From the sequence record HE978309: a stretch of 64,000 nt of DNA; one strand, 5' to 3'. The position numbers and the translations under genes are program-made. Positions within the stretch are counted from its first letter, which is position 1. Every line of letters starts with the position of its first letter. The stretch is from Enterobacteria phage GEC-3S. The notes below the pieces were generated by a model. It searched no databases, had not been told where the DNA came from, and was given only the letters and a program-made list of their open reading frames with translations. Positions 21,915 to 59,416 of the stretch are shown piece after piece.

Positions 21915-21943
21915 TTTGATTCTCCGTTTGTTGTCTTGATGGG

Positions 21944-21985
21944 AGTATCTTACTACTCCCTTTAATCATTGTCAACGATTATTTG
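21944..21985 (-). promoter_or_regulatory. early promoter cassette (PeSL-like)
   Basis: TTGACA, spacer containing GGGAGTAGTAAGATACTCCC hairpin, weak -10. Confidence 0.45.
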
Positions 21986-31563: not shown

Positions 31564-31593
31564 CTTGATACTCCTTAGTTGTTTTAGTATTGG

Positions 31594-31635
31594 AGTATCT
31601 TACTACTCCCGTGATATGCTGTCAACTGCTTTTTT
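31594..31635 (-). promoter_or_regulatory. early promoter cassette (PeSL-like)
   Basis: TTGACA, spacer with GGGAGTAGTAAGATACTCC hairpin. Confidence 0.5.
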
Positions 31636-55315: not shown

Positions 55316-55347
55316 AAGGGGAAGCCTTTCGGCCTCCCCTTCTTTTT
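55316..55347. terminator. terminator between convergent genes
   Basis: hairpin with UUUC/GAAA loop followed by TTCTTTTTATT. Confidence 0.55.
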
Positions 55348-55594
55348 ATTGGCGCATAGAAGCCCCTGAATCACATTTTGACGCTGTATGATGAAAACAG
55401 GTAGCGTACCAGTCATCGGCTTGTTTGTCTTCGTCAGAAAACGCGTAATTGCGTTGTATGCCGTTTTCTACTTTGACCAGTGCAATAGCTGTTTCTGGAA
55501 GATCAATCAATCGGACAAAATCACCATCTTCCCACTCTACACGAGCAATATCATAGCCCATCTCAAAGTATACAATCGCTTGTTCTAATTTCAT
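55346..55594 (-). CDS. DUF2829-like small protein, candidate Tad2-type anti-defence sponge
   Basis: 82 aa; pattern ...YDIARVEW...DKQADDWY resembles DUF2829/Tad2 as I recall it. Confidence 0.4.
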   Translation of the reverse strand: MKLEQAIVYFEMGYDIARVEWEDGDFVRLIDLPETAIALVKVENGIQRNYAFSDEDKQADDWYATCFHHTASKCDSGASMRQ

Positions 55595-57308: not shown

Positions 57309-57590
57309 TTATTTTCGGTTGTAATTCTGCCACTTTCGGTAATACTGCTTGTAATATTGTTTAATGTTTGGTGGTTCGTCACTATACATGTTATCAACCA
57401 TCATGTCAATAAGACCTTCCGGTGTTTGATAGTTACCCGCTCGAATGAGTTCCTTAATCAAAAGATCTTGTGTCGCTTTATACTTGACAATAACAACTGT
57501 CTTTTCTGCCTTTCCAATTCCGATCCGGTCGTTAGCTCTCATAGCATCCCACCAATCTTTTTTAAACTTCATGTTGTTAAATTTCATCAT
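57309..57590 (-). CDS. hypothetical protein (93 aa)
   Basis: ORF track. Confidence 0.4.
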   Translation of the reverse strand: MMKFNNMKFKKDWWDAMRANDRIGIGKAEKTVVIVKYKATQDLLIKELIRAGNYQTPEGLIDMMVDNMYSDEPPNIKQYYKQYYRKWQNYNRK

Positions 57591-58391
57591 TTAACCCTTC
57601 TTATATTCGCAAACATATTGAGTACCATAATCATAGCTAATGCGACCTTTCTCGATGACTTCAAAGCGGATTTCATCGTTTTCCCCTACCCACATTTTGT
57701 ACTCGTTGAAGTATCCTGCTACATCCGGTTTGCTCATACCAACAACCATATTTTTATATTGTTTGCTGCGTGTCAGATTTGATTTAAACACTTCGCGCTC
57801 ATCAACATATACGAAAGAAGACAATTCACCTTCGGTCATGGTCATTTTCAGCTTGCCGCCCTTGTTGCCATAAGTAGAGTTGCCATACAATGGATCTTTG
57901 CGGCTGTCTGTTTCAATACCATCAATGATTTTCCATGTAAATTTTGCAATGCACTGATAAGTGATAGATCCAGAGATTTTCTCTTCTTTCTTCTGTTCTT
58001 CCACCACTTTTTCTTCCTGTTTCGGCTGTTCTTCTTCAACCTTCACGGAAGTCTCTGAATCGATTTCTGACGCGGTTTCTTCTTTAGGTAATACATTCAT
58101 CAAGTTTTGGATTTGAGCGTTATATACAGCCTCCAGTGGCTGGATCTGCCCGATATTGATCATTGTATCACGAACAGTTTTATTCCAGTTGCGTTGCTCT
58201 TGTTTAAGAGACGGATCAATCTTAACAGCCTTAACATATACTTCATGAAGTTTCGAATCCAGTGCGGAGATTGACTCATTAGCACAAATAAACTTCTCTG
58301 ATTTGGTAGTAGCTTTAGCGCAATCAAAGGACGCAGCATTAGCACCGAAAGCAGTAGCAGAAAGAACGATAGCAGCGATAATGTTTTTCAT
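57591..58391 (-). CDS. secreted protein with DUF1311 (LprI-like) N-terminal domain
   Basis: 266 aa; signal peptide MKNIIAAIVLSATAFGANA; FDCAKATTKSEKFIC...LDSKLHEVY. Confidence 0.5.
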   Translation of the reverse strand: MKNIIAAIVLSATAFGANAASFDCAKATTKSEKFICANESISALDSKLHEVYVKAVKIDPSLKQEQRNWNKTVRDTMINIGQIQPLEAVYNAQIQNLMNVLPKEETASEIDSETSVKVEEEQPKQEEKVVEEQKKEEKISGSITYQCIAKFTWKIIDGIETDSRKDPLYGNSTYGNKGGKLKMTMTEGELSSFVYVDEREVFKSNLTRSKQYKNMVVGMSKPDVAGYFNEYKMWVGENDEIRFEVIEKGRISYDYGTQYVCEYKKG

Positions 58392-58421
58392 AATATATTC
58401 CTCAATGTTTTTCTTGATGGG

Positions 58422-58463
58422 AGTATCTTACTACTCCCTTAATCCGGTGTCAACTACTTTTTA
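58422..58463 (-). promoter_or_regulatory. early promoter cassette (PeSL-like)
   Basis: TTGACA with GGGAGTAGTAAGATACTCCC hairpin. Confidence 0.5.
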
Positions 58464-58703: not shown

Positions 58704-58745
58704 AGTATGTTAATACTCCCATTTCTTTACGTCAACCAGTTTTTA
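58704..58745 (-). promoter_or_regulatory. early promoter cassette (PeSL-like)
   Basis: TTGACG then TAACAT-like -10, conserved leader. Confidence 0.45.
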
Positions 58746-58985
58746 GAAATTTTTCGCTTCTTCTTCGGTCATCATCACCGCGCATTCGTGCATAACTTTG
58801 AAAACCGGGTCAATCATATCGAATGCTTCGCGGGACAGTTTACGAGAAGCGATTTTGACTGCTTCAACGTCTTCTACTACAGGAACAAAAACAGTTTTCA
58901 GTTCGTCGAGCATGGCAGCTTCTTTTTCATTCAGGAAGATTCCAGCGTCGTACAATGCAACTTCGATAACATTAACTTTAACCAT
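58743..58985 (-). CDS. hypothetical protein (~80 aa)
   Basis: ORF track 58743..59048; start MVKVNVIE with GGAGGAAATAAAA RBS. Confidence 0.45.
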   Translation of the reverse strand: MVKVNVIEVALYDAGIFLNEKEAAMLDELKTVFVPVVEDVEAVKIASRKLSREAFDMIDPVFKVMHECAVMMTEEEAKNF

Positions 58986-59016
58986 TTTTATTTCCTCCAG
59001 TTCGTTTCGGTATGGG

Positions 59017-59058
59017 AGTATAATACTACCGATGACCTTTGGCGTCAACTAGTTTTTG
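59017..59058 (-). promoter_or_regulatory. early promoter cassette (PeSL-like)
   Basis: TTGACG, 17 nt, TATTAT-like, conserved leader ACTCCCATACCGAAACGAAC. Confidence 0.5.
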
Positions 59059-59249
59059 TTATTTTCGTGAAAATTTTTCGTCGCCTCATGTGCTTTTCTC
59101 TGGGCTTCTTGTTGTGCTTGCTGGCGTGCTGCCTCTTGCGATGTCATAACGGAAGCATTTGCAGCAGTTACAGCCGCGACCATCGCTGCGGTATTAGCAT
59201 TTACAGTACATGCACTAGCCAGCAAAGCAATTGCAATCATTTTCTTCAT
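59049..59249 (-). CDS. small secreted/periplasmic protein (66 aa)
   Basis: signal peptide MKKMIAIALLASACTVNA; Gln/Ala-rich mature part. Confidence 0.45.
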   Translation of the reverse strand: MKKMIAIALLASACTVNANTAAMVAAVTAANASVMTSQEAARQQAQQEAQRKAHEATKNFHENNKN

Positions 59250-59416
59250 AGTTTCCCCTTTAGGTTATCTTCGACCTTCATCCATTCCGCGTATTCTTGC
59301 GCGGCTACTTTCGGATTTAGTCCGTCTTCGTACATTGCTTCAAGTAATTCTTCGTCGGTGGGCTTATACCCTAGATAAGCCTCCACCTGATTTTTCCAAA
59401 TTTTATACCAGTTCAT
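59246..59416 (-). CDS. hypothetical small protein (56 aa)
   Basis: ORF track 59246..59485; start MNWYKIWKNQ with GGTGATAAT RBS. Confidence 0.4.
   Translation of the reverse strand: MNWYKIWKNQVEAYLGYKPTDEELLEAMYEDGLNPKVAAQEYAEWMKVEDNLKGKL

Follow-up and report, generated by a model that had tools for sequence, protein, structure and literature searches.

Architecture of the 266-residue protein

We analysed a stretch of 64,000 nucleotides (nt) from Enterobacteria phage GEC-3S (sequence record HE978309), referred to below in its full length as the window, and focused on a minus-strand gene that encodes a protein of 266 amino acids (aa). The source genome is a Krischvirus, a pseudo-T-even, T4-like coliphage of the RB49/Phi1/JSE group. 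The gene lies within a same-strand cluster of small open reading frames (ORFs) that extends from gene 52 (topoisomerase II) to the holin gene t, the latter 2.3 kb away. Orthologues with 98-99% aa identity are found in Phi1 (ORF262), E26 and MIZ, where the database label is "hypothetical protein" throughout, and RB49 ORF260c and JSE EpJSE_00265 are allelic counterparts. The anatomy and evolution of the gene are solid: the product is early, exported and built of two modules, a constant head and an exchangeable, predicted barrel, and it is shared between lytic and temperate phages. Coordinates are collected in Table 1.

Table 1. Features of the 266-aa gene and of other elements of the window discussed in the text (pLDDT, predicted local distance difference test; PeSL, early promoter with stem-loop; arrow, cleavage point).
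Feature	Coordinates	Strand	Basis or detail
Complete coding sequence, 266 aa, ATG start, TAA stop	57591..58391	minus	ORF list and translation
Predicted Sec-type (signal peptidase I) signal peptide, aa 1-19, MKNIIAAIVLSATAFGANA↓A	58335..58391	minus	hydropathy, -3/-1 rule, lipobox check
Constant module, aa 20-105, predicted helical domain of DUF1311/LprI-N type	58077..58334	minus	Pfam PF07007, conservation, AlphaFold2
Acidic, disordered linker rich in E, K and P, aa 106-139, variable length	57975..58076	minus	pLDDT <50 at aa 100-137; blastn break points
Variable module, aa 140-266, predicted eight-stranded all-beta domain, class A allele	57594..57974	minus	AlphaFold2 on the family alignment, pLDDT ~85
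PeSL	58419..58453	minus	TTGACA-N9-GGGAGTAGTAAGATACTCCC; 28 nt upstream of ATG
Shine-Dalgarno sequence GAGGA	58399..58403	minus	7 nt upstream of ATG, read from sequence
Downstream ORF, 93 aa, phrog_15915	57309..57590	minus	ATG at 57590, directly after the stop codon, no intergenic gap
Exchanged DNA cassette, about 370 bp	~57621..57990		blastn
AAGAAGA micro-repeat in linker DNA	57982..58001		
Further PeSL, exact 35-nt repeat	21941..21975	minus	
Further PeSL, one mismatch	31591..31625	minus	
82-aa ORF adjoining holin t	55346..55594	minus	Pfam PF11195
First tandem ORF, ~110 aa	55591..55920	minus	
Second tandem ORF, ~110 aa	56029..56361	minus	
ORF next to the 66-aa ORF	58743..59048	minus	
66-aa ORF	59049..59249	minus	
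Segment holding the 66-aa ORF, ~500 bp	~58757..59258		

The reading frame had been singled out in a preliminary description of the window, which did not give its strand, and it is real. The ratio of non-synonymous to synonymous substitution rates (dN/dS) is 0-0.26 in the N-domain for all pairs compared and 0-0.29 in the C-domain within allele classes, values which show that the ORF is coding. The full-length protein matches PHROG 14799 (E 1.7e-156), and its first 140 aa also match phrog_4675; neither group has an annotated function. A scan of the whole protein against NCBIfam returned nothing significant.

Upstream of the gene is a canonical PeSL with the -35 box TTGACA, a 17-nt spacer and the -10 box TAAGAT; its hairpin is GGGAGTA-GTAAGA-TACTCCC (-13.3 kcal/mol, z -2.5). 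The window holds two further copies, one exact and one with a single mismatch, where none would be expected by chance. In phi1 and RB49, PeSLs are strong sigma70-type early promoters joined to stem-loop terminators and are typical of hyperplastic regions (PMC2839356); the main text of that paper mentions neither ORF262, p262 nor 260c. Early transcription of the 266-aa gene is well supported by this promoter sequence, and the earlier placement of the gene in an early region agrees with it.

The N-terminus has the features of the cleavable signal peptide that had been proposed for it. A basic MK n-region is followed by a 13-residue hydrophobic core (aa 4-16, mean Kyte-Doolittle value 2.3) and by A-N-A↓A at positions -3/-1. 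The cleavage region reads FGANA↓ASFDC, with the first Cys at +5 and preceded by F-D; a lipobox (Cys at +1) is not present in the N-terminus, and the mature protein contains no second hydrophobic segment (maximum 19-aa hydropathy 0.5). The motif A-x-A↓ASFDC is kept in homologues from Klebsiella, Aeromonas and lambdoid phages. Each module carries one invariant pair of cysteines, Cys24/Cys36 in the N-module and Cys147/Cys261 in the first and last strands of the barrel, an arrangement that fits an oxidising compartment. Together these features point to a periplasmic protein that probably has a disulfide in both modules.

The N-terminal half of the protein is the DUF1311-bearing module. It contains the motif ...AASFDCAKATTKSEKFICANESISALDSKLHEVY, including the pattern that the preliminary description had quoted, and it carries the invariant Cys24 and Cys36 together with a QRxW...R motif. 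The profile search that had been suggested passes for Pfam PF07007 (LprI, the same family as DUF1311) at 24.0 bits against a gathering cutoff of 22 (E 5.3e-5), with aa 24-77 aligned to positions 1-72 of the 106-position profile. AlphaFold2 places helices at residues 30-58, 62-78 and 83-100 at a low pLDDT of 50-65, because the alignment offers no variation or covariation signal in this region. Searches of PDB sequences with the N-module found no relative. The name LprI-like thus holds for the N-terminal third of the protein and not for all 266 residues. The predicted C-terminal barrel had escaped notice, as had the hypervariability of the cassette encoding it and the existence of a copy in Escherichia coli prophages. 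A 2006 listing already gives RB49ORF260c a weak match to DUF1311 (E 0.2; PMC1524935), and current UniProt and NCBI names of homologues are "LprI-like N-terminal domain-containing" or "lysozyme inhibitor LprI family protein".

The same layout recurs in three further phages, with a signal peptide and AASFDC...DUF1311 followed by a hydrophilic linker and an unrelated Cys-containing C-domain. These are a Klebsiella Marfavirus (250 aa), an Aeromonas Ceceduovirus (239 aa) and the lambdoid phage ev099 (232 aa), in which the gene occupies an accessory region between ea22 and xis/int. All three divergent homologues pass the PF07007 threshold (23.1, 25.2 and 30 bits). Judged by this recurring layout, DUF1311 is a fixed secreted module that phages combine with different C-terminal domains. 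Secreted DUF1311 proteins are common in enterobacterial and Aeromonas phages, and their records carry the automatic label "lysozyme inhibitor LprI family". In Klebsiella phage PWKp18, a Marfavirus, the 250-aa gene (L008:2501-3253) lies about 2 kb from a homologue of the Spackle gene (L008:140-421), near the primase gene; its product consists of a signal peptide, DUF1311, a linker and a helical C-domain.

Cassette exchange and a copy in a temperate prophage

A search of 5.8 billion clustered proteins found 21 homologues, 20 of which could be compared. Residues 1-105 are 94-100% identical in 19 of the 20, and the remaining one, P0020, is at 89%. Residues 140-266 share 15-45% aa identity between allele classes, with a sharp transition within the linker. 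The same break is seen in DNA. Compared by blastn with RB49, JSE, ECD7 and Makalu, the window keeps 95-97% identity as far as about 57990 or 57978, has zero similarity to any of them beyond that junction, and becomes similar again at 57621 or 57600, which corresponds to the last ten or three codons of the gene. Since the loss of similarity is confined to the stretch between the linker and the 3' end of the gene, we conclude that the C-terminal domain has been replaced as a cassette. The linker is the 5' recombination junction of this cassette, similarity ending between 57978 and 58021 depending on the comparison, and its DNA includes an AAGAAGA micro-repeat.

This exchange resembles the PeSL shuffling described for phi1 and RB49 by Arbiol et al. 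in 2010 (PMC2839356) in its setting: the 266-aa gene belongs to a hyperplastic region of this phage group and is preceded by a canonical PeSL. It differs in the unit exchanged. In PeSL shuffling whole ORFs are moved between PeSLs, whereas here half a gene is moved, bounded by the linker on one side and by the stop codon on the other.

The barrels of 38 sampled sequences fall into 14, 8, 6 and 2 clusters at 90, 70, 50 and 30% identity, and the two groups at 30% have no detectable similarity to each other. Among isolates, nine records carry class A at an identity of at least 99% and 46 carry other A/B-type alleles at 31-38%, mostly the class B of RB49; the remaining isolates, JSE included, have no match to the window cassette. 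Synonymous divergence between classes is saturated in the C-domain (dS >1.7) and is 0.04-0.21 in the attached N-module. Within a class the C-domain is under purifying selection, as the dN/dS values given above indicate. Ongoing hypermutation or positive selection is rejected on these values, although no search for a reverse transcriptase or template repeat of a diversity-generating retroelement was made. As read from these sequences, the barrel alleles are old and discrete and have been recombined onto a homogenised N-module. We also considered a confinement of the variation to loops at one end of the barrel and found no clear pattern: strands have a mean identity of 0.42 and loops one of 0.31, and variation is greatest at aa 209-253. 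A toxin-immunity pairing with the downstream ORF was rejected as well. That ORF is kept at the DNA level across the cassette classes of the window, of RB49, ECD7 and Makalu, and of JSE, at 92-95% identity to the window, and the rejection is limited to these phages compared at the DNA level, the A2 and B2 metagenomic contigs having downstream ORFs of other lengths.

The C-domain could not be assigned to a known sequence family: searches of Pfam, NCBIfam, PADLOC and PDB profiles were all negative. A profile search of 1.84 billion representative proteins returned its own cluster and PKD-repeat proteins and nothing else. The latter matches (proteins of 946-2632 aa, E 3e-7 to 8e-4) come from a W-x3-DG hairpin summed over 3-7 repeats. 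We reject them as domain homologues and ascribe them to local motif convergence at aa 151-158 (FTWKIIDG).

Comparison of predicted structures was more informative. Foldseek searches of the PDB with the class A barrel gave weak but coherent matches to the C-domain of neisserial NHBA (6cuj; E 3e-3, TM-score 0.43 relative to the target), to TbpB and to lipocalin barrels. Sequence identity is 9-13% for NHBA and 5-14% across the barrels, which have no Pfam family in common. The class C cassette of JSE type is also predicted by AlphaFold2 to have eight strands (pLDDT 60-84), again with 6cuj and TbpB among its top matches, and hhalign rejects sequence homology between this class and the A/B cassettes (probability 3%). 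The NHBA C-domain, TbpB/LbpB and the lipocalins are therefore the best structural neighbours of both class A and class C, and the likeness to these neisserial lipoprotein barrels and to lipocalins is one of fold only. On the evidence of the models, all cassette classes probably adopt one fold. A few small stand-alone phage proteins of 130-160 aa in BFVD have the same barrel.

A lipocalin-like fold might suggest an anti-defence protein or small-ligand sponge in which the barrel sequesters a periplasmic defence effector, a hydrophobic ligand or a signal, and a Tad2-like sponge gene does occur in the same early cluster. The closest structural neighbours, however, are the protein-binding barrels of surface lipoproteins (TbpB and NHBA, at a weak E of 3e-3), no ligand-binding motif was identified, and a periplasmic anti-defence factor whose synthesis follows DNA entry would be of little use to the phage already infecting the cell. 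We give this explanation only a very slim chance.

Copies of the 266-aa gene are also present in 26 of 5,426 complete E. coli chromosomes. Shared DNA begins 6 nt before the ATG (58397), just downstream of the Shine-Dalgarno sequence GAGGA, and runs at 94-96% identity as far as the linker, with four different end points. Each of the five regions inspected (L006, L009-L012) has the gene as the last one of a temperate prophage of about 35 kb, beside an interrupted hicB. The visible parts of these prophages contain terminase gpA, a Rha regulator or tail genes with DUF2163 and DUF6950. The gene is thus a terminal moron next to the attachment site, a classical position, and nine IMG/VR contigs of 23-36 kb (L022-L031 except L028) likewise have it at one end. 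At the insertion site the hicB antitoxin gene is interrupted and hicA is intact beside the truncated hicB.

The prophage cassettes belong to classes A2, B2 and C, all three of which also occur at the locus between genes 52 and t in Krischvirus-type genomes; within each of these classes, lytic and temperate cassettes are only 52-71% identical. Directly after the stop codon of the prophage gene there are 67-76 nt with 79-84% identity to the beginning of the downstream Krischvirus ORF (window 57587..57521). What is left of this ORF in the prophage is a truncated stub of 25 codons, MKFNSMKITKDWWDAMKAN..., which in E. coli H2 (L009:7774-7848) reads MKFNSMKITKDWWDAMKANHQNDIN and then stops. Such a remnant of a Krischvirus ORF suggests that the temperate phage acquired the gene from a lytic, Krischvirus-like one.

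The prophage copy bears directly on the control of lysis timing that had been proposed for the protein. A regulator of the phage's own lysis would bind the endolysin, the periplasmic domain of holin T or the antiholin, and would set timing or lysis inhibition. A probable periplasmic location, the 2.3-kb distance to holin t and a family name that suggests lysozyme binding could all be read this way. Yet the gene, with its N-module DNA 94-96% identical, is found in an unrelated temperate prophage. The annotation of this prophage is not T4-like and, in the regions inspected, lists no T-type holin. Moreover, the promoter is early and not late, and the barrel is hypervariable whereas flanking DNA is 95-97% identical and the lysozyme domain of gp5 99-100% identical across Krischviruses. 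On these grounds, above all the prophage copy and the early promoter, a role in the phage's own lysis is very unlikely.

Candidate functions in the periplasm

The suggestion in the preliminary description that the protein concerns envelope defences remains the best general reading of its function. More specifically, and by analogy, we tentatively propose that it may be a periplasmic exclusion or immunity factor with a role like that of T4 Spackle, whose niche it would fill in this genus, a possibility that we would place somewhat short of even chances. The protein would be expressed early from its PeSL and exported by the Sec route to the periplasm. Its gene would circulate between virulent Krischviruses and the ~35-kb hicB prophage, and recombination at two points, the acidic linker and the 3' end of the gene, would exchange its barrel alleles. 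In the periplasm the protein would shield a cell under infection, or a lysogen, against enzymes or machinery that breach the envelope from outside; the tail lysozyme brought in by a superinfecting phage is one example, and the muramidases of type VI secretion systems (T6SS) are possibly another. The constant DUF1311 module would engage a conserved target, for which the genus-invariant GH24 lysozyme domain of gp5 is one candidate, and the exchangeable barrel would add a second, type-specific binding activity. We infer these targets, and the exclusion phenotype itself, from the anatomy and distribution of the gene. The proposal is favoured because such a protein would be useful both early in lytic infection and in a lysogen, and because one of its modules exists as many discrete, conserved alleles. 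The presence of a further candidate counter-defence gene, a Tad2-like ORF 2 kb away, also counts in its favour. Near-invariance of the N-module against a diverse barrel with discrete conserved alleles is, in our judgement, the kind of selection typical of specificity determinants.

The model for this analogy, T4 Spackle, is an early protein of the periplasm that brings about superinfection exclusion and blocks the gp5 lysozyme (PMC7677548, PMC7650644). By its sequence features alone, the 266-aa protein shares with Spackle (Sp, gp61.3) an early phage gene, a signal peptide and a soluble periplasmic product. The two have no sequence relationship and belong to different PHROG and Pfam families; Spackle, a single helical domain of about 97 aa, also differs from the 266-aa protein in lacking its two-module build with one hypervariable module. 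The RB49 annotation shows no sp between genes 61 and 41 and no imm beside gene 43. A lenient tblastn search of RB49 (1-45 kb) and the window with the Marfavirus Sp returned nothing above noise, and no recognisable Krischvirus was found among the best 60 of 247 Spackle-bearing records. RB49 gp5 does carry a Phage_lysozyme domain.

Several observations weigh against the proposal. The PF07007 match is real but marginal and partial. The DUF1311 family has four conserved cysteines according to the description quoted in PMC7933661, and the N-module has none beyond Cys24 and Cys36, so that the family's second pair is missing. DUF1311 is not a proven lysozyme inhibitor: deletion of ScwA, a periplasmic DUF1311-only protein of Salmonella, left lysozyme susceptibility unchanged (PMC7933661). 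Marfavirus carries both a Spackle gene and a two-module DUF1311 gene, which weakens a simple complementarity and indicates that the two proteins are not simple substitutes for one another. PADLOC gave no match for the 266-aa protein, and our literature search found no functional study of it, of a close homologue or of any phage DUF1311 copy.

Co-variation with plausible partners was not found either. The lysozyme domain of the phage's own gp5 is 99-100% identical in all cassette classes, so the barrel does not co-evolve with gp5; among the modules, only the invariant N-module parallels the invariant gp5 domain. Nor does the barrel co-vary with the receptor-binding tip of gp37, encoded 3 kb away: the gp37 tip of the window matches those of the class B phages JK32, ELT4 and JEP8, and the tips of class A phages are only 73% identical to it. 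With neither gp5 nor gp37 as a correlate, the barrel polymorphism is left without a target-based explanation, which also counts against our proposal.

The gp37 result bears equally on receptor masking of the type known from T5 Llp and Cor, in which the barrel would close an outer-membrane receptor from its periplasmic face and the cassette classes would correspond to receptors. T5 Llp is a precedent for exclusion proteins acting from the periplasmic side (PMC9586334), and a variable binding module and a moron position in the prophage would both be in keeping with such a role. We nevertheless consider masking quite unlikely, given that cassette class is unlinked to the gp37 tip, that the 266-aa protein is no lipoprotein, unlike Llp and Cor, and that no role is left for the conserved DUF1311 module.

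The "lysozyme inhibitor" label deserves similar scrutiny, as the preliminary description had taken DUF1311 for a domain of lysozyme-inhibitor-like proteins. MliC, like the variable module as predicted, is an eight-stranded barrel. An identification of the variable module as MliC or PliC is not supported: Pfam PF09864 gave no match at E<=10 for four cassette classes, no such protein was among the top 50 Foldseek matches in the PDB for two classes, and a PDB profile search with the barrel found neither MliC/PliC nor any sequence relative. According to the account given in PMC7933661, the label derives from LprI of Mycobacterium tuberculosis, which combines DUF1311 with an MliC domain, and MliC alone is enough for lysozyme resistance; the same paper states that evidence for PF07007 as a lysozyme inhibitor is lacking. 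The label is weak, since ScwA is the only protein with DUF1311 alone to have been tested and its deletion left susceptibility to lysozyme unaltered.

M. tuberculosis LprI is nevertheless a parallel in architecture, being exported and having an N-terminal DUF1311 followed by a second domain. It differs in being a lipoprotein with a recognisable MliC domain, whereas the 266-aa protein has a signal peptidase I signal and neither a lipobox nor an MliC signature. An LprI-style two-domain inhibitor would have the barrel as a functional analogue of MliC/PliC and DUF1311 as its scaffold. Each cassette would be directed at a different muramidase (animal c- or g-type, phage GH24 or T6SS), and the prophage copy would be a lysogenic-conversion factor. 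The order DUF1311 then MliC, as PMC7933661 describes it for LprI, is reproduced in outline; the barrel is confidently predicted and bracketed by cysteines; and discrete conserved alleles fit discrete enzyme targets. Set against this are the uniformly negative searches for MliC, the lack of the lipoprotein form found in bona fide inhibitors (PMC7933661) and the absence of any obvious gain for a lytic phage from inhibiting animal lysozyme within one infection cycle. We regard such an inhibitor as unlikely.

ScwA itself offers a different model, in which DUF1311 would alter the level or activity of host peptidoglycan hydrolases such as MltD and condition the sacculus during infection or lysogeny. 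ScwA is periplasmic and disulfide-dependent, controls the levels of murein hydrolases, and lyses cells when over-produced (PMC7933661). The 266-aa protein shares with it the probable periplasmic location, the presumed dependence on disulfides and DUF1311. In ScwA, however, DUF1311 is C-terminal within an all-helical protein of different architecture that regulates host hydrolase levels. A modulator of envelope homeostasis would leave the polymorphic barrel and the sharing between lytic and temperate phages unexplained and does not predict balancing diversity, and we assign it a low probability.

A link between DUF1311 and the neutralisation of cell-wall toxins in the periplasm, which favours the proposed exclusion or immunity role, comes from T6SS. 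Etsi4, a DUF1311 protein of enterohaemorrhagic E. coli (EHEC), rescues the toxicity of the periplasm-acting cell-wall effector Etse4 (PMC12981562), and LprI/DUF1311 proteins with signal peptides are predicted, in part orphan, immunity genes adjoining lysozyme-like T6SS effectors (PMC9796082, PMC12135965). EHEC Etsi4 and the orphan LprI-domain genes of Pantoea have in common with the 266-aa protein a DUF1311 and a signal peptide, and they neutralise, or are predicted to neutralise, periplasm-acting cell-wall toxins. They differ in being single-domain proteins encoded beside an effector, whereas the 266-aa protein has a polymorphic barrel and a phage context. No adjacent effector or T6SS island was found: the phage neighbours are small ORFs, topoisomerase gene 52 and holin t, and the prophage copy is flanked by hicB, the attachment site and a small acidic ORF that may encode a terminase small subunit.

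The exclusion or immunity proposal can be extended to a polymorphic, recombination-shuffled periplasmic immunity common to virulent and temperate coliphages. DUF1311 would then be a "warhead" against the invariant GH24 tail lysozyme and the TbpB-like barrel a second specificity against other invaders, and capture of the gene from a Krischvirus by the prophage would protect lysogens against that lytic phage, giving an exclusion independent of Spackle. We consider this extended version doubtful. If true, it would be the first function assigned to a phage DUF1311 protein. If the protein is an exclusion factor at all, it would explain a superinfection block by Krischviruses, which are often used in therapy cocktails and for which no Spackle or Imm homologue was found at the syntenic sites; about 0.5% of E. 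coli strains might resist Krischviruses through the prophage moron, and the set of alleles would offer a ready-made collection with which to map specificity. Otherwise, "lysozyme inhibitor" should be taken as no more than a name. Membership in DUF1311 was already known from public annotation. The two-module anatomy, the cassette polymorphism at the level of a domain, the sharing between lytic and temperate phages with its directional footprint and the TbpB/NHBA-like fold of the variable module are new.

Other genes of the early cluster

Several other small ORFs around the 266-aa gene drew our attention. The 82-aa ORF that adjoins holin t, 2 kb from the 266-aa gene, matches Pfam PF11195 (Tad2-like, Thoeris anti-defence 2) at 27.9 bits against a gathering cutoff of 25, and its orthologue in metagenomic Krischvirus contigs is also flagged as Tad2-like. 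Within this early cluster the ORF is a candidate for an anti-Thoeris sponge. The two tandem ORFs next to it are diverged paralogues, with 37% identity over their C-terminal 43 aa (E 8e-8) and a shared ending, ...EN(V/I)(Y/F)GKF.

Upstream of the 266-aa gene, the 66-aa ORF begins with MKKMIAIALLASAC↓TVN, a lipoprotein-like signal containing A-S-A-C. The 66-aa ORF has neither a PHROG nor a Pfam match. From its sequence it may be a second envelope-targeted accessory gene. The segment that holds it is present in Ec_Makalu_001 and missing from Phi1, RB49, JSE and ECD7.

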